From Candidatus Binatia bacterium (GTDB lineage Bacteria; Desulfobacterota; Binatia; Bin18), in assembly GCA_963666315.2 (NCBI GenBank), contig CAXXHG010000047.1, positions 1 through 64,000 on the forward strand: a stretch of DNA of 64,000 nt, in the 5' to 3' direction. Positions within the stretch are counted from its first letter, which is position 1. Each line of letters opens with the position of its first letter. A model generated the notes under the pieces. The model ran no database searches and was not told the DNA's origin. It saw nothing but the letters and a program-made list of their open reading frames with translations. Position numbers and translations under genes: made by a program. Positions 45,000 through 52,000 of this stretch are shown in pieces.

Positions 45000-47165
45000 T
45001 CACCTGCATGGGCCGTGCGCACGATGATAGTCGGTCACGAGACAGAGGGCGCGCGCTGCCCGCTCGTGTGTGGGCATGGTAGCGATCCTACGTGCATGAA
45101 ATTGAGAACGCGCTTCAAGGAGTTCCGCTTCGCGGGCAAAAGGTTGGAGTACAACGAAAAAGGGTTTGGCTGAACGTGCCGCAAAACCACTCAGAGTATC
45201 TAACAAAGAGGTGAGTATCTCAGGTCGCGCTTGCCATTGTCCGGCAACCAAACCGGCCCCGGTATCCATAACTATAGCGTCAATATTGGGATCACGATCA
45301 AGGATGGACAGGAGTCGAGCCAGGGTGTCTGTCATCTGGCCCATGCCGATGGTATGGCCGGAGTCGAGTGGATTACGAAAACTACCGCCTATCACACTAA
45401 AGAACGAAGAGAGTTCTTTGTAGGACGTGTCGCTGAGGAGGGGGACGCGCAGGCCCGCGTGCTCAAACGCATCCGTCATAGTCACCGACGGCCCGCCGGT
45501 CATGGCAACCAGGCCGACCCCATCTCCGGTTGTGGGGTTTACAAACTGCAGGAGCTTGATGACGTCGAGCAGTTCATCAAAACTGCCGGCGGGAATCGCG
45601 CCGGCCTGACGGACCATAGCGTTCCACACTGCAGCGGGGACTGCCAGCGAGCCCGTGTGGGATGAGATCGCCCGCTGGCCGGCTTCGCTCTGCCCGCCTT
45701 TCCAAACCACAACAGGCTTTTTGGGCGTGACCTGTCGCAGCAAAGAGAAAAAACGGCGGCCTGCGCGTATGCCTTCGAGATACATGCCAATGATCCGGGT
45801 CTCTTCGTCATGGGCGAGATAATCGAGGTAATCACTCGCGTCGAGGACTGCGGCATTCCCAAAGCTGACAGCTTTACTAATCTTGAGTCCGTGGTTGGGG
45901 GCGGCCAGGCTAAAGGTGATGGTATGCGTACCGCTCTGACCAATAAAGCCGACCGTGCCGGGCTCGCCGGCCGGCAAGTCTGGATAATTGCGTAACCCGA
46001 TCTTGGGATTATAGAGTCCCATACAGTTCGGGCCGATGAGGGCGAGTCCGGCTTCCTGCGCTGTCTGGGTGACCAGCTGTTCCAGGCGTTGCCCCTCTTC
46101 ATCTTTTACTTCAGAGAAACCGGAGGTAAAGAGCATCACGCCAGAGACCTTTTTGGCTGCACAGTCGGCTACTATCCGAGGCGCAATCTGGCGTGGGACT
46201 GCAGTCATGACATAGTCAATGTCTTCCGGGATGGCATCCAAGCTTGGATAATTATCGATCCCTAAAGCCGTGATGCCGGGGATTTCACGCTCATCGATCT
46301 GTACCGAATAGACCTTGCCTTGGAAGGTGCTCTGGCTGCGCAGCCACAGGTAATTCATCGCGCGTTTATCGCCAATTACGGCAACCGCTTTGGGGTTAAA
46401 CGCCCGGTCCAACGAGGCCCGCGTTGTTGCAGAGAGCGGACGAGGAGCAGCCAGCGGCCCTGTAGAACGAATAACGACCCGCGCATCAACGGCGAGGCAG
46501 CCGTCGGCATAGGCGAAAATGGGATTAAGGTCGAGTTCCTGAACATCGGGCTGGGCTTCGGCCAAGGCCGAAAGCGCGAGCAGAGTCTGTTCCAAGGCGG
46601 TGAGGTCAACGGCGGCTTGGCCACGATGTCCGGTTAACGACGGGAGTCCGGTGACCTCACGAATCATTGTACGGGCATCGTATTGGTTGAGTGGAACTAA
46701 ACGAAAGGCGACATCCTTGAGAACCTCTACATGTACACCGCCCAAGCCGAACATCACGAGTGGGCCGAACTGTGCATCAGTCGTCAGACCGATGATGACT
46801 TCGACCCCAGGCTGGGCCATGGGCTGAACGGATACACCGTCGAGGATCGCGTTGGGTTGCGCTTTTTGCACGCTCTGCGTGATTGCAGCAAATCCGTCGC
46901 GGACCACATCCTCTGAAGTCAGATTCAGTTGAACACCGCCCACATCGCTCTTATGCGCAACGTCAGGTGAGCAGACTTTGAGCGCCACAGGGAACCCCAC
47001 GTCGCGGGCTATCGATATCGCCTCTTCTGCCGTCCGCGCCAACTCCGTGCGCACAACGGATATGCCTGCCGCTTGAACGAGCGCCTTCGCTTCGACTTCG
47101 GTGAGCAAGGTGCGACCCCGAGCCTTTGTCTGTTGAATGAGCGCGTATACGTCGGTGTTGGCCAT
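45000..47165 (-). CDS. ADP-forming acetate/acyl-CoA ligase (beta-alpha fusion)
   Basis: ATP-grasp HKSDVGGV, FGLGG, DLNP; then GPNCMG, QSG, SHTGSLA (phospho-His), NPLD. Confidence 0.93.
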   Translation of the reverse strand: MANTDVYALIQQTKARGRTLLTEVEAKALVQAAGISVVRTELARTAEEAISIARDVGFPVALKVCSPDVAHKSDVGGVQLNLTSEDVVRDGFAAITQSVQKAQPNAILDGVSVQPMAQPGVEVIIGLTTDAQFGPLVMFGLGGVHVEVLKDVAFRLVPLNQYDARTMIREVTGLPSLTGHRGQAAVDLTALEQTLLALSALAEAQPDVQELDLNPIFAYADGCLAVDARVVIRSTGPLAAPRPLSATTRASLDRAFNPKAVAVIGDKRAMNYLWLRSQSTFQGKVYSVQIDEREIPGITALGIDNYPSLDAIPEDIDYVMTAVPRQIAPRIVADCAAKKVSGVMLFTSGFSEVKDEEGQRLEQLVTQTAQEAGLALIGPNCMGLYNPKIGLRNYPDLPAGEPGTVGFIGQSGTHTITFSLAAPNHGLKISKAVSFGNAAVLDASDYLDYLAHDEETRIIGMYLEGIRAGRRFFSLLRQVTPKKPVVVWKGGQSEAGQRAISSHTGSLAVPAAVWNAMVRQAGAIPAGSFDELLDVIKLLQFVNPTTGDGVGLVAMTGGPSVTMTDAFEHAGLRVPLLSDTSYKELSSFFSVIGGSFRNPLDSGHTIGMGQMTDTLARLLSILDRDPNIDAIVMDTGAGLVAGQWQARPEILTSLLDTLSGFAARSAKPFFVVLQPFAREAELLEARSQFHARRIATMPTHERAARALCLVTDYHRAHGPCR

Positions 47166-47240
47166 AGTTATCCCTCCTCATACGGTCGAGCCCCTTTTAT
47201 CCGAGTGTGTGTTGACGAGCAATCTTATAGGTGTGGAGTT

Positions 47241-47422
47241 GAGATGTTTGGTTGCGCTCAACATGACACCGTGAAACCGTTATTTGGATAGCCTCGTAGA
47301 GAGAGAACGGGGCCAGAGTACTCTGTCAGGGGTCACGTGAGAGGTCTGTCATGCTGAGCCGGCGCCCTCCAACTGCGCTCAGGACGAAGAGATTCTTCGT
47401 CGCATGGCTCCTCAGAATGGCA
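47241..47422. repeat. TGTC-type REP-like palindrome cluster
   Basis: 47390-47422 is a near reverse complement of 23959-23991; related halves at 47241-47269 and 47347. Confidence 0.65.
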
Positions 47423-47441
47423 CGTATCGAAAGTGGCGACG

Positions 47442-48116
47442 CTATGTTAATTTTTGCTCGACCTGTTTCCGCAAGGCGTCGATTTCGTCACGCAAGGTTT
47501 GGAGCTGCGTAGCGAGTGTCCCCTCGACCGCTTCTTGAACAAACTTCTCAATATATTTGCCCTGCATATCGCCTTCGATATTGACCCGATCGCCAGGTTT
47601 TCTGCGATGCAGTGTGGTGACTTCGTGGGTGTGGGGAATAATCGCGCAGGTAAATTCCGTGGGCTTGCAGTGAAACACCGTCAAGCTGATACCATCCACT
47701 GCCACTGAGCCTTTTTCTACAAGATAGCGGCTTAATTCGGTCGGAATAACAAAGGTATAAAGAAACGAATCGCCTTCCGGCTGGATGGATTGGACCTGGC
47801 CGACTCCATCAACATGCCCGAATACCAGATGGCCCGACAGCCGGTCATCAAGACGGAGCGAACGTTCCAGGTTGACGTTATCGCCGATGTGTAAGTCACC
47901 CAAATTGGTACGCCGCAGTGACTCAGCTGATACATCAAAGCTCAGTTCACCCTCGCCTGTGCGCGTCACCGTGAGACAGGTGCCGTTGGTGCAGATGCTC
48001 TCGCCTATGCTGACTTCTTGGCCCGGAATACTCGCTCGCAGTGTCAGACGTACACCCTCGACGATAGTGTCAATCTTAGTGATCGTCCCTGTGGTTTCGA
48101 TAACGCCACTAAACAT
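47442..48116 (-). CDS. ribE: Riboflavin synthase
   Basis: MFSGVIE, GESICTNGTCLTV, VNLERSL, GHLVFGHVDG, KGSVAVDGISLTV. Confidence 0.97.
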   Translation of the reverse strand: MFSGVIETTGTITKIDTIVEGVRLTLRASIPGQEVSIGESICTNGTCLTVTRTGEGELSFDVSAESLRRTNLGDLHIGDNVNLERSLRLDDRLSGHLVFGHVDGVGQVQSIQPEGDSFLYTFVIPTELSRYLVEKGSVAVDGISLTVFHCKPTEFTCAIIPHTHEVTTLHRRKPGDRVNIEGDMQGKYIEKFVQEAVEGTLATQLQTLRDEIDALRKQVEQKLT

Positions 48117-48124
48117 AATGCCTC

Positions 48125-48216
48125 GGAGGGATTGGGGGCTGGGGGAAAGATTCAGGTAAGAAAAGCTTAACGGCCCCTCCTTTTTATCAGACCCCTAATC
48201 CCTATTCCCCAGCCCC
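48125..48216. repeat. Inverted blocks of degenerate heptamer repeats
   Basis: GGGGATTGGGGGCTGGGGG ... CCCCTAATCCCTATTCCCCAGCCCC. Confidence 0.5.
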
Positions 48217-48221
48217 TTTTC

Positions 48222-48830
48222 CTAACCTGCAGCTTGGACGCTAGGTCGTTCTTTGAGCCGGCTGAGCCATGCTTCAAGTTTAGGGTGCGGGATTTCAACC
48301 TTCAGCGTGGGAAAGAGTAGAGCCCAGGAAACATACGGAATGTCCGCCATGGTAAACGTTGAGTCGAGCAGATAGTCGTTATTTCCCAGCTCGTTGGCAA
48401 TGTGATTAAAACAGGCATGCAGGTCTGCCGCTGCAGTGTTGACGACTTCCTGGTCAGCCGTAACGCCTTGCATGGGTTTGAGCAGCAGCTCTCCGACCAG
48501 CGTTGTAACTGCGCTTTCATAGGGATTATCGCCGTAATGCATCAGAACCCGTGCACGCGCCCGCTGTCCCGAATCTGCGGGGAGCAGCGCTGGGTCTGGG
48601 TAGGCGTCGTTCAAATATTCCATGATGACGGTGGACTCGTAGACTGTTGTTCCGTTGTCTTGCAGTGCTGGAACTTTTCCGTACGGATTGATAGCCAAAT
48701 ACTCCGGCGTTTTCTGCTCGCCCTTGGTGATATCAATACTGATTTTTTCGTACTGGAGGCCTTTCTCTGCGAGCACGATGCGGACCTTGCGTACTCGTGG
48801 CGATAGAGGGAAATCATACAGCTTCATCAT
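48222..48830 (-). CDS. Glutathione S-transferase family protein
   Basis: SPRVRKVRIVLAEKG, INPYGKVPAL, ESTVIMEYL, FTMADI. Confidence 0.95.
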   Translation of the reverse strand: MMKLYDFPLSPRVRKVRIVLAEKGLQYEKISIDITKGEQKTPEYLAINPYGKVPALQDNGTTVYESTVIMEYLNDAYPDPALLPADSGQRARARVLMHYGDNPYESAVTTLVGELLLKPMQGVTADQEVVNTAAADLHACFNHIANELGNNDYLLDSTFTMADIPYVSWALLFPTLKVEIPHPKLEAWLSRLKERPSVQAAG

Positions 48831-48985
48831 TCGGTGTCCTCCAATGACGGCCCTTGGTTCGCTTTTTCTTGTTCCTTTTTCTTGAGTTTTTCGAGCAGCT
48901 CGCGATCTCGTTTGGCAAAGTATTGATCTTCGTCAGCTTTGCCCTTGTCCCGAATTTTATTGCTGAGGTGGTCCTTATCGTCCAT
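48827..48985 (-). CDS. Small IF1/zeta-like (ATPase inhibitor-like) helical protein
   Basis: Own AGGAG RBS 7 nt before ATG; IRDKGKADEDQYFAKRDRELLEKLKK. Confidence 0.6.
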   Translation of the reverse strand: MDDKDHLSNKIRDKGKADEDQYFAKRDRELLEKLKKKEQEKANQGPSLEDTE

Positions 48986-49261
48986 CAGTTTACTCCTGCT
49001 ACCCTGCTGCTCCTGCTGTTTTTTTGACTTTAGACGGTTCATAAGACGGTTCATAAAATCCTGGGCCTTTTGTTTCAGAAAAATGTGCCACCTGACTGCC
49101 CATTTGAAATCTCGACTGAGAATCCCAAAACTCAAAACAACCAGCACAATGCCCGGACCAGGAACGCCAGGCAGGCTGAGAAAGAGGCCGGCAAGGAGGA
49201 GTAGGAATCCAGCGCCGATCCGGCATATGCGCCAGAGCTGACCGCGTGCTGTACGCAGCAT
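48986..49261 (-). CDS. PGPGW-family membrane protein (reads in frame into the small ORF as assembled)
   Basis: GFLLLLAGLFLSLPGVPGPG...LSRDFKWA. Confidence 0.75.
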
Positions 49262-49294
49262 ATTCAGTCAACCTCAGAGTCGGGTCGAGACAGG

Positions 49295-49630
49295 CTAGAG
49301 GTCGTCAAGAATTTTCCCACTGCGTGCTTTATCCACCGTCTCATCAAATTGTGAGCCGAGATCAACACCCATTTCTTTGGCCCGTTTTTTTGCCCACAGG
49401 CCAACGTTGCGAGAGTCGCGATAAAATGATTCATCCCGCGGAGCACCGGTGTCAAAGGCATTGAGCCGCGCAGCTTCGCCTTGGTGGTATGCAAAACGCG
49501 ATAACAGACGGGTCAAGCGACGACGTTTACAGGACTGACACCGGGGAGACGTTTCAACGTCCGCGCGCTTCATAAAGAGCAGACTTTGCTGCCTCCCACA
49601 CGCTTTACAGTAGTATTCGTAGATCGGCAT
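49295..49630 (-). CDS. FmdB family zinc-ribbon protein
   Basis: MPIYEYYCKACG...CQSC...LLSRF. Confidence 0.9.
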   Translation of the reverse strand: MPIYEYYCKACGRQQSLLFMKRADVETSPRCQSCKRRRLTRLLSRFAYHQGEAARLNAFDTGAPRDESFYRDSRNVGLWAKKRAKEMGVDLGSQFDETVDKARSGKILDDL

Positions 49631-49748
49631 GGTACACACACGGCACTCATTTTCCCCTATCACACCTTCTCCAGAGGTGCTATAGAGAAAACGTCTCTCA
49701 CCTTTCTTAAGAAGTGGACGCAGCTGCTGAGGGTCGCGGAGATAGACT

Positions 49749-50531
49749 ATGCGAGTGAGGGAATCCCTGAGCTGGGTCAGGAGAATGCGCTACCTCGACG
49801 GCGACCAACAGTTTCCACATTTCCCCTGGATGAATTTGGCTCTGGTTGGGATCAATCTGGGCTGTTTCGCCTATGAACTCAGTCTCGGGCCAGCGCTGCA
49901 GCCTTTCCTGACAACCTATGGCTGGATCCCGGAGCAATTTTCTCGCGCCCTCACTCATGGACACATCCCAGTCCTCAGCCCGCTTCTAGTCAGTACCTTC
50001 CTGCACGGTGGCTGGCTTCATTTGCTGGGTAATTTGGTGTGTTTGCTCATCCTTGGGGGAGATGTAGAGCAGCGGCTGGGTGCTGTTCGATACCTGGGCT
50101 TGTATATATGTGGCAGTCTGGTTGCCTTATTGAGCCAGACGGCTGTCGCTCCGTTCTCACCCATGCCGATGATAGGCTCTAGCGGGGCTATTGCCGCAGT
50201 GGCGGGCACCTACTGCATATTCTTTTTTACGCTACAGGACTTTCGAGTTACCCCGCGCCTCTTGTCTGGGCGCATAGAGCGGATCCCTGCCCTGCTTTTC
50301 CTGGTTGGGTGGTTTCTCTTTCATCTGCTTGCCGGTGTCTATGCGCATGCCGTTGATATGGCGCCCTCGTCGTTCTTCGCCCGCGTCGCCTGGGGAGCCC
50401 ATGTAGGCGGTTTCCTGGGTGGCATGCTCTTAGGCCCGCTGCTGTTGGTGCATCAGGCCCGCCGGCGTCGTGGCCCCGTTTTCGGTGACTCACCGCTTGT
50501 GTTTGGTCGACCGAAGTTCCTCCTCCGCTAA
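49749..50531 (+). CDS. Rhomboid family intramembrane serine protease
   Basis: FLHGGWLHLLGN, GSSGAI, AHVGGF. Confidence 0.92.
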   Translation: MRVRESLSWVRRMRYLDGDQQFPHFPWMNLALVGINLGCFAYELSLGPALQPFLTTYGWIPEQFSRALTHGHIPVLSPLLVSTFLHGGWLHLLGNLVCLLILGGDVEQRLGAVRYLGLYICGSLVALLSQTAVAPFSPMPMIGSSGAIAAVAGTYCIFFFTLQDFRVTPRLLSGRIERIPALLFLVGWFLFHLLAGVYAHAVDMAPSSFFARVAWGAHVGGFLGGMLLGPLLLVHQARRRRGPVFGDSPLVFGRPKFLLR

Positions 50532-50649
50532 CATGCGGTAGCACGCGGTAACATGCAGTGACATGAAAGAACGCCAGAGTCGATTCTGCGGCTAGGGCGG
50601 TGCGTATCGCATGCCCGAATCTGGCGAGGGGAATGAGTTCTTCAGTTCG

Positions 50650-51138
50650 TCAGTTCAATTGGGCAGACAGCGCCGCAAGGGTACGTCGTGCGGTAAGCGA
50701 GCGGGGTTCGACTTCCAGGGCCCGACCAAATTCACGCGCCGCTGTGAGCAGATCCCCTTTTGCAAGAGCAATCCGACCGAGGTTGAGGTGTGGATAGTGA
50801 CGGCTCTCATAATGCGTTGCCGTGAGGGCACGCTCTAGCCACGGCACGGCGTCGTCAAGCTTCCCCATCCTCATCAGGTAGAGGCCAATATCATTATACG
50901 GATTCCCAAATTCAGGATCGATCGCAATAGCATGCCGACACTCTTCAATTGCGTTTTCGTACCGCTGCAGGAAACCATATGTCCAACCCAGGAAGGTATG
51001 GGCTTCGGCAGTCGGATGGAGTTGGACCGACTCCTGATAGCAACGCATTGCGTCTCCCAACTCTCCCTGCAGCTGCGCTTGGTGTCCTTTTCGAAAAAGT
51101 TCCGAAGCTTTTTTCGTCCGTTCTTTTGTTGTTTCCAT
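50650..51138 (-). CDS. TPR repeat protein
   Basis: PTAEAHTFLGW, AIAIDPEFGNPYNDIG. Confidence 0.9.
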   Translation of the reverse strand: METTKERTKKASELFRKGHQAQLQGELGDAMRCYQESVQLHPTAEAHTFLGWTYGFLQRYENAIEECRHAIAIDPEFGNPYNDIGLYLMRMGKLDDAVPWLERALTATHYESRHYPHLNLGRIALAKGDLLTAAREFGRALEVEPRSLTARRTLAALSAQLN

Positions 51139-51223
51139 ACGCTGTACTCCAGTTATCTGGGTTACGGGCAGTTACCTGCGTTACAGAAAAGATGCGTATG
51201 ATTCTTGAGATGTCAAGTCGAGG

Positions 51224-52000
51224 TCAAGTCAAAGAAGAAGTTTGTGGCGTTGTTGCATGCAGGTAAAAAGAGAACAGGGTGTAATAGAGTGGATAGTATA
51301 AGGAGGCAGCGACGAGCCACGGACGGGGATGAGGGAACTGGGCTAAGAGCACGAGCAGGACAACGCCCCAGCCGGCTCCGAGGGTATTCGTCAGCAGGCG
51401 CAGCCGAACCGTGCGGGTTGGGTAAATATAACGAATAGGAATAAACACGAATACCGCAAGAACGCAGATCAGGCTCGCGTTGATCCAGACTGGTGTCCCT
51501 CCTGCGTAGAGATAGAAAGCCAAGATATTCCAATATGACGGAAAGCCGGTGAAAAAGAAGTCTGGCGTTTTCGCCTCGGCCTGACAAAAGCCAAAGGCGC
51601 TGGCAAAGAGTGGAGCGGCGACAAAAACAAGGGTGCCTGTAGCAGGGAGTAAATCGAACTCATGCAGAAAAACAACCGGGACAATGACATAGGTGAAATA
51701 ATCAACAATGTCATCGAGCTTTGCTCCGTCGACCCACGGGAGTACCCGTTTGACCTGAACCGCCCTAGCCAGGGTGCCATCCGTGGCATCAATCAGTACG
51801 GCCACGAACATCCAGACAAACGCCAGCCACGCATTGCCGACAAAGATGGCCTGGAGGGAAAGAAACCCGGCAATAAGACCGGATGCAGTGTAGGAGTGGA
51901 CCGCCCAAGCCGCTACACGCATCATCCAATGCTTGCAATGCGAGTGAGCTGTCTCATCCTTCACTTCAGGTGAGGCGCTGTGGGCTGAGGGTGGGCTCAT
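51224..52000 (-). CDS. pcs: Phosphatidylcholine synthase (CDP-alcohol phosphatidyltransferase)
   Basis: AWAVH.YTASG, DG-x2-AR-x12-G-x3-D-x3-D, FTGFPSYWN; start uncertain. Confidence 0.85.
   Translation of the reverse strand: MSPPSAHSASPEVKDETAHSHCKHWMMRVAAWAVHSYTASGLIAGFLSLQAIFVGNAWLAFVWMFVAVLIDATDGTLARAVQVKRVLPWVDGAKLDDIVDYFTYVIVPVVFLHEFDLLPATGTLVFVAAPLFASAFGFCQAEAKTPDFFFTGFPSYWNILAFYLYAGGTPVWINASLICVLAVFVFIPIRYIYPTRTVRLRLLTNTLGAGWGVVLLVLLAQFPHPRPWLVAASLYYPLYYTLFSFYLHATTPQTSSLT

Follow-up and report, generated by a model that had tools for sequence, protein, structure and literature searches.

The stretch of DNA considered here, termed the window, comprises 64,000 nucleotides from a Candidatus Binatia bacterium (contig CAXXHG010000047.1). 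On its minus strand, an open reading frame (ORF) at 48827..49261 encodes a protein of 144 aa in which a PGPGW membrane protein is joined to a small peptide resembling the inhibitory helix of mitochondrial IF1. The gene for this 52-aa peptide (48827..48985, minus strand, stop codon included) is delimited by its separate ORF in relatives, by pN/pS values, and by profile tests; read from its internal ATG the peptide is MDDKDHLSNKIRDKGKADEDQYFAKRDRELLEKLKKKEQEKANQGPSLEDTE, with the IF1-like helix at approximately residues 9–43. A Shine-Dalgarno sequence, AGGAG (48993..48997, minus strand), is followed by a 7-nt spacer (48992-48986) and the peptide ATG (48985-48983), and the peptide TGA (48829-48827) overlaps the ATG of the following GST gene (48830-48828) as ATGA at 48827-48830. 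All of these signals, first pointed out in an initial annotation of the locus, are found in the sequence as proposed. From the comparisons described below, the peptide is probably a prokaryotic homologue of IF1, and an inhibitor function for it is plausible.

The remainder of the fused frame (residues 1–92; 48986..49261, minus strand) consists of two transmembrane helices flanking the motif LPGVPGPG, a juxtamembrane helix, and a Q/E-rich linker. Residues 17–65 match PF09656 at 37.5 bits (cut-off 23.3, E 1.7e-9), so that these N-terminal 92 residues belong to the family of small PGPGW membrane proteins (PF09656, TIGR02611); the same identity had been assigned initially, together with the fusion of the peptide to a membrane anchor in the 144-aa frame as assembled. 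In an AlphaFold2 model of the whole protein, hydrophobic helices at 3–28 and 37–51 are followed by a single long helix at 53–135, whose most confident part, with pLDDT ~90 at residues 110–130, is the IF1-like stretch; the pTM of 0.26 is low, as expected of an extended protein. A PDB search with the PGPGW part gave no match, and the literature search on PGPGW returned nothing relevant on the function of the family.

Similarity between the peptide's family and IF1 is significant at the level of profiles in both directions. Against the Pfam IATP model (PF04568), the peptide scores 20.1 bits (E 9e-4) over profile positions 54–88, and in a PDB search it gives weak matches to IF1 and to the plant protein At2g27730. 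Sub-threshold IATP matches, always at profile positions ~47–88, were obtained for 17 of the 24 bacterial module proteins scanned, the module being the N-terminal segment that the peptide shares with its bacterial relatives. A search of 1.84e9 representative proteins with the peptide (phmmer) gave 48 matches, the second best of which (E 2.6e-8) is P0055, a protein of 159 aa containing two copies of GDRGKAKEDEYFRRAELELLEKLRK. P0055 is itself an IATP member (37.2 bits, cut-off 25), with an N terminus that looks like a mitochondrial presequence, and a search with it for IF1 family members found 5 proteins only. More sensitive comparison relied on A1, an alignment and profile of 25 bacterial modules with no eukaryotic row. 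When the A1 profile was run against 177,635 PDB sequences, the top 11 matches were all mitochondrial IF1 (E 7.9e-6 to 6.1e-3), aligned to mature residues 23–58, which constitute the inhibitory helix.

In the reverse direction, the IATP model was run against all six frames of 41 whole genomes, 39 of which have the module. The module gene was the best IATP match in 27 of these 39 and a lower match in 7, and it accounts for 34 of the 77 IATP matches listed, three of them above the cut-off (25.7-26.0 bits). In the window's own genome, the peptide was the only match at E <= 10. Comparison of A1 by hhalign with P0103, a single-repeat relative of P0055, gave a probability of 96.2% and E 2.4e-9, the target here being one sequence and not the full IATP alignment. 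The A1 hidden Markov model (HMM) scored P0103 at 38.2 bits and its reversed sequence at -0.8, and the maxima over 5000 whole-sequence shuffles and 5000 matched-segment shuffles were 14.5 and 11.9 bits, respectively. As P0103 lies far above all shuffles and the reversed sequence, composition does not explain the match. The likeness to the IF1 inhibitory helix noticed initially thus goes beyond chance, and it is likely that the bacterial module and this helix share either ancestry or design.

Two further observations concern the distribution of IATP-like segments. A recurrent open frame of ~686 aa in same-genus genomes gives weak IATP matches (E 0.03-0.9, profile positions 12–91) at G014:C1:661610-661780, G011:C4:218521-218748, G018:C1:2676648-2676893, G001:C1:2512426-2512662, and G008:C298:14212-14385; these may represent a stretch of coiled coil or another segment of the IF1 type. 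The protein P0105 (189 aa, from a 77-kb contig) begins PLGDRGKALEDEYFRRKDRELIERLR and resembles the IATP-type P0055 more closely than it does the Binatia module; the unassigned domain that follows has no Pfam match at E <= 0.001, and P0105 may be a bridging form.

The functional residues of the IF1 helix provide a second line of comparison. According to the available text of Bason et al. (PMC3041923), the residues that give the binding energy in the final F1-IF1 complex are F22, A28, E30, Y33, F34, Q41, L42, and L45, with E30 salt-bridged to R408 of the beta subunit. In the alignment of A1 to the PDB sequences, the equivalent positions of the peptide are I11, A17, E19, Y22, F23, L30, L31, and L34, so that six of the eight are identical, one (F22 to I) is a conservative replacement, and one is different; judged by this alignment, the peptide would have the residues that mark the inhibitory helix of IATP/IF1 proteins. 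A1 has a single invariant column, E19, and conservation at F23 is 90% or higher. The residues R25, R37, K39, and E40 of the IF1 binding pathway correspond to K14, R26, R28, and E29 of the peptide. On the side of the presumptive target, most bacteria have a conserved beta contact region, and the host beta subunit carries DELSEEDRLTVARARKVQRF, in which we take the second Arg of RAR to be the counterpart of bovine R408. Mitochondrial IF1 (PF04568) and the bacterial module thus have in common one long helix with the core K-x-K/Q-A-x-E-E/D-x-Y-F-x-x-R-x-K/R-E-x-L-x-x-L-K, and the module is N-terminal in the proteins of the relatives. They differ in what accompanies the helix, the bacterial module having a membrane protein or a zinc ribbon as its partner or fusion domain and neither a coiled coil nor a His-rich switch.

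There is clear homology between the peptide and the initial ~40 residues of a set of bacterial proteins, 100-120 aa in length, that have a C-terminal zf-TFIIB ribbon (PF13453), among them P0049, P0050, and P0052 (E 1e-5 to 6e-4, 57-70% identity). The module that they share has the consensus M-x-E-K-D-R-L-G-D-K-L-R-D-K-E-K-A-E-E-D-x-Y-F-A-x-R-D-R-E-L-L-E-K-L-R, and many full-length family members have a C-terminal tail of the GW-L-x-R-F-L-R type that is likely amphipathic. Only the N-terminal module is present in the window, where the gene has neither the CxxC...CxxC ribbon nor the GW-L-x-R-F tail and where the peptide contains no Cys and has no match to PF13453; an additional protein search for longer forms brought up two more zf-TFIIB proteins only. 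On this comparison, the peptide is a truncated, ribbon-less member of the zf-TFIIB module family. The initial annotation had held that homologues revealing a merely truncated zf-TFIIB-type protein would count against an IF1-like inhibitor, and such homologues do exist; the IF1-like idea nevertheless survives, since that very family has the IF1-like stretch as its conserved N-terminal module. Our literature search, which did not extend to subscription papers or preprint supplements, found no paper on the function of the bacterial PF13453/zf-TFIIB family. PDB entry 8yoz, the structure of an 82-aa "Transcription factor zinc-finger domain-containing protein," has a match (E 3.1e-6) to the ribbon found in full-length members of the family, and no paper on this structure was found in the literature searched.

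A scan of species-representative genomes identified 135 loci with a relative of the module, of which 80 were kept for all per-locus counts given here. Classed by the length that follows the Tyr-Phe pair, these 80 comprise 52 ribbon forms, 17 short stand-alone forms, 7 fusions to a cpYpsA SLOG domain, and 4 in frame with an OYE-type flavin oxidoreductase; other partners of the module are Usp (P0051) and an HTH domain (P0059). The short stand-alone forms, which include several Vibrio species and Competibacteraceae, arose in several lineages. The module is N-terminal throughout the sequences inspected, and a start codon was counted at 80 of 80 loci, a weak indication since start codons are common. 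In the window's class, the module occurs in 130 of 150 sampled genomes at E <= 1e-4 (129 of 149 without G146), and by this measure the family is nearly universal among the Binatia-like metagenome-assembled genomes (MAGs) of that class and has a scattered occurrence in other phyla. Among named relatives, the nearest are MAGs labeled Candidatus Binatia.

Several details of individual relatives are also of interest. Some MAGs with the locus are labeled Enterobacteriaceae, Alphaproteobacteria, Klebsiella, or Nitrosopumilus yet group with Binatia-like genomes, and one labeled Alphaproteobacteria (G055) falls in the window's own class. The SLOG fusions (PF12694, E 1.9e-59) are found in Chromatiaceae (L102-L104, L110, L115, L123), and the modules in frame with the oxidoreductase (PF00724), which has its own internal Met, in Lamprobacter and Halochromatium (L111, L119, L122, L125). 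In G009, a second copy of the module (L041; G009:C71:5500-6500) has its IF1-like helix running straight into the part that follows the ribbon (HGVWLDHAAL...), as if the cysteines of the zinc ribbon had been deleted.

That so short a member of the family might be a functionless, decaying zf-TFIIB remnant, its likeness to IF1 a convergent or coincidental property of a charged amphipathic helix and its fusion one more step of decay, deserves consideration. The peptide is below the family-norm length, has lost the zinc ribbon, and does not reach the Pfam cut-off, and the linker before it is prone to insertions and deletions, as exemplified by the 8-nt and 12-nt changes described below and by a 15-nt insert in the linker of G009. 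Set against this, the shuffle controls rule out composition as the source of the match, and the reverse IATP search placed the module first in most of the module genomes, as given above. The pattern of substitution points the same way. Over the first 44 codons of the peptide in four genomes (six pairs), pN/pS is 0–0.31, with 2–6 synonymous and 0–3 non-synonymous changes; three of the six pairs have 0 non-synonymous against 3–5 synonymous changes, and the peptide is more conserved than the neighboring PGPGW core. Its Shine-Dalgarno sequence and its stop/start overlaps are conserved. The short form is, moreover, the only copy of the module in the window's genome, where no second copy was found, and in G020 and G024, where there was no second module match, and stand-alone forms turn up again in Vibrio, in Competibacteraceae, and in further lineages. 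Decay of this kind is accordingly improbable, and by the evidence of its substitutions the peptide is a real small gene under purifying selection.

In relatives, the two parts of the 144-aa protein are encoded by two genes. Separate, overlapping ORFs are found in three genomes (G020, G009, and G024) and at three metagenome loci (L197, L198, and L200), as anticipated initially in describing the peptide as normally a stand-alone gene, and in all six the PGPGW gene stops in the other frame ~10-15 codons past the peptide ATG. The AGGAG-7 nt-ATG arrangement and the ATGA overlap of peptide and GST genes are kept in the unfused relatives (L003, L004, and L005 included), an organization that is, by its overlaps, the layout of translationally coupled genes. 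Unfused PGPGW homologues measure 82-92 aa and align with no more than the N-terminal half to two thirds of the 144 aa. Among the 53 listed homologues of the 144-aa protein, 47 have PF09656 (P0003-P0048 and the fused P0002), and fusion of PGPGW to a soluble helix, the feature that sets the window's protein apart from its PGPGW family, occurs only in the window and in P0002. The latter (135 aa, 66% identical) is known from its protein record alone; since its own DNA was not recovered in the metagenome scan, that record is the whole basis of the second fusion.

Comparison of contigs identifies how the fusion arose in this strain. Contigs of runs X4 and X7, ~97% identical and from other studies, have 8 nt fewer at 48995 and 12 nt fewer at 49032. 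The first difference is an 8-nt insertion at 48995..49002 (minus strand), ambiguous in placement within a CAG-rich repeat and an imperfect copy of the adjoining CAG-rich octamer, which brings PGPGW and peptide into one frame; the second is a perfect tandem duplication of 12 nt (2 x 12 nt, 49032..49055, minus strand), which adds MNRL in frame to the juxtamembrane helix of the PGPGW part. The fusion is therefore the outcome of a recent, strain-level insertion of 8 nt in the CAG-rich linker. An A7 run at 49019..49025 (minus strand) and an out-of-frame TAG at 49001-48999 (+1 frame) lie where the initial annotation had placed them, but the run is not the site of the frame difference, as had been suggested there. 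The accompanying proposal that the fusion was an indel error, a recent mutation, or a slippage switch holds insofar as a recent indel is responsible.

Assembly or sequencing error, with the organism in reality possessing two genes, is the other explanation that must be weighed here. The region is of low complexity, with CAG repeats and the A7 run, the depth of the contig is low (~5), and one of the two runs that match the window may be the source of its assembly. The change itself, an insertion of 8 nt and a duplication of 12 nt, is not a homopolymer miscount. Contigs of run X1 (study P1) and run X2 (study P2), one of which is possibly the window's source sample, are identical to the window, with 0 differences over 336 nt (48947-49282). 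Because independent sets of contigs from two runs of two studies give exactly the fused form, an artefact is very improbable.

The genes that surround the fused frame form an operon-like string on the minus strand, with a gene for an FmdB-type zinc ribbon upstream (49295..49663; Zn_ribbon_8, TIGR02605), the GST gene next to the peptide (48222..48830; GST_N_3 E 2.4e-23, GST_C E 1.2e-8), and ribE, for the alpha chain of riboflavin synthase, at the downstream end (47442..48116; Lum_binding E 2.5e-49). Scans of the locus for promoters and terminators gave no score above shuffles, and there was no Rfam match in 46000-52000. The RNA sequencing runs considered (X15-X20) contain small shares of the stretch only. 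The FmdB-PGPGW-peptide-GST-ribE unit recognized at the outset is conserved as a string: among 20 same-genus loci, the window included, FmdB, PGPGW, and ribE are present in 20, GST in 19, and the peptide in 4, and in the loci read the FmdB-PGPGW-GST-ribE order recurs in all 24 other genomes of the genus. Between PGPGW and GST, a peptide ORF is limited to G020, G009, and G024, which are the closest genomes, and to the more distant G003 and G010, and in G025, from another family, a full-length relative of the module holds the place of the peptide immediately after the PGPGW gene, as at other loci. In L187 (G075) and L191 (G123), a module-ribbon gene is followed directly by ribE with no GST gene, so that adjacency to ribE appears older than the insertion of GST. 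At L189, L190, L192, and L193, same-genus loci with a full-length module gene away from PGPGW, a gene that by reading of its sequence is CBS-domain-like lies directly upstream on the same strand. Shadow ORFs, which arise in GC-rich DNA, made the clustering of neighbors at the 80 loci noisy, with only FmdB, GST, ClpB, VOC, and TPR recognizable, and the neighbors of the Vibrio modules had no conserved gene context.

Of the 80 loci, 23 have a PGPGW gene immediately upstream of the module gene and on the same strand, many of them ribbon forms. This association, the two fusions, and the likely amphipathic tail suggest a membrane-proximal role for the module. The same facts can be read in another way, in which the module is related to the IF1 helix and has a different partner in bacteria, serving as a general N-terminal adaptor that docks varied domains (zinc ribbon, SLOG, OYE, and Usp), or itself, onto PGPGW or some other membrane-proximal target, with the link to ATP synthase confined to eukaryotes. 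Adjacency to PGPGW at 23 of 80 loci as against adjacency to atp genes at none, the two natural fusions of PGPGW and module in the window and P0002, and the variety of C-terminal domains all fit this description, as do IATP-like helices in other complexes, recognized by PDB titles only (P2/At2g27730 of plant complex I and a chain labeled mS47 | IF1). In the other 57 loci, however, no PGPGW gene lies directly upstream, and contact between PGPGW and module is putative. Furthermore, the most conserved residues of the module (E19, Y22, F23, A17, L31, and L34) are those with which IF1 binds beta and alpha, a coincidence that would be unexpected with a different partner. An adaptor role is quite possible, if on the unlikely side.

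IF1 is regarded as a eukaryotic invention, and the literature searched, again without subscription papers or preprint supplements, contained no paper describing an IF1-like bacterial module. In its available text, a review (PMC9317440) states that BLAST finds no prokaryotic IF1 gene except two hits ascribed to transfer, and treats IF1 and the bacterial inhibitor zeta as independent, analogous solutions in which the N-terminal helix of zeta blocks F1 at the IF1 site. Zeta (DUF1476, PF07345) resembles the peptide in idea, as a bacterial protein with an N-terminal helix that blocks F1, and differs from it in having no sequence similarity to it: PF07345 gives no match to the peptide at E <= 10, and none over the window's genome at E <= 1, so that no zeta was found in this host, which has a single F1 operon. 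The zeta likeness supposed initially was therefore not borne out, and of the two profile comparisons proposed at that stage, IATP yields a sub-threshold match and DUF1476 none. AtpTheta, a small cyanobacterial peptide reported in the available text of a preprint (bioRxiv 10.1101/2021.07.30.454416) to inhibit ATP hydrolysis by F0F1, is a precedent only in being a small bacterial inhibitor peptide, likened here by description.

How the conserved residues would operate can be outlined from these comparisons. The system would derive from two translationally coupled genes, for a two-helix PGPGW membrane protein of ~88 aa and for the 52-aa peptide, joined in this strain by the 8-nt insertion. The module helix would pair the invariant E19, equivalent to E30 of IF1, with the conserved Arg that follows the DELSEED loop of beta, and Y22, F23, L31, and L34 would pack on beta, while the PGPGW partner would tether the helix to the face of the membrane that bears F1Fo. 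Tethering to the membrane could be achieved by more than one route, through a neighboring PGPGW gene, through fusion as in the window, or through the C-terminal amphipathic GW-L-x-R-F-L-R tail of the full-length forms. Free peptide could still be made from the fused allele by way of the AGGAG-ATG that it retains.

A number of results weigh against an F1 inhibitor of this kind. The peptide is not a formal member of Pfam IATP, its 20.1 bits falling below the gathering cut-off of 25, and it is without the C-terminal half of IF1: it ends 18 residues after L34, its sole His is H6, and the antiparallel dimerizing coiled coil and His-rich pH switch of IF1 are absent, the module relatives having a zinc ribbon or other domains where IF1 has the coiled coil. 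The reverse IATP search missed the module gene in 5 of the 39 genomes, the match in the window's own genome reached just E 0.074 (15.7 bits), and an Atlas look-up returned no IATP cluster, only unnamed bacterial clusters. Bovine IF1 is, to our knowledge, not known to inhibit bacterial F1 despite the conserved beta contact region. A43 and A44 of IF1 are replaced by E32 and K33 in the peptide, and bulkier residues at these positions lowered the affinity of bovine IF1, as the available text of PMC3041923 reports. The fused allele has no free N terminus of the helix unless translation starts internally. Domains of unrelated kinds (cpYpsA SLOG, OYE-type oxidoreductase, Usp, and HTH) are fused to the module, a pattern more in keeping with a general adaptor than with a dedicated inhibitor. 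Finally, no F1Fo (atp) genes lie within 6 kb of the module at any of the 80 loci; so far as we know, the IF1 gene likewise does not stand beside atp genes. The zeta gene is likewise described as not beside them in the available text of the review cited above (PMC9317440). The full proposal that the module binds F1 and restrains ATP hydrolysis is tentative, falling somewhat short of an even chance. The broadest version, in which the IF1 helix has prokaryotic homologues and a widespread, membrane-held module holds back the hydrolysis of ATP by F1Fo, is rather unlikely as a whole.

What distinguishes these results from earlier knowledge is that the module is common in bacteria, where relatives of IF1 were thought not to exist. 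A module that has reciprocal, shuffle-controlled similarity to IF1 and has kept the F1-contact residues makes the origin of IF1 directly testable, along with the question of whether an IF1-type helix regulates ATP hydrolysis in many bacteria other than Alphaproteobacteria. It also provides a first functional lead for two large families, the PGPGW membrane proteins and the bacterial zf-TFIIB ribbon proteins. If the inhibitor reading is true, the module would represent a further class of bacterial inhibitors of ATP synthase and a candidate ancestor of IF1; should the helix have some other partner, it would still indicate where the sequence design of IF1 came from.

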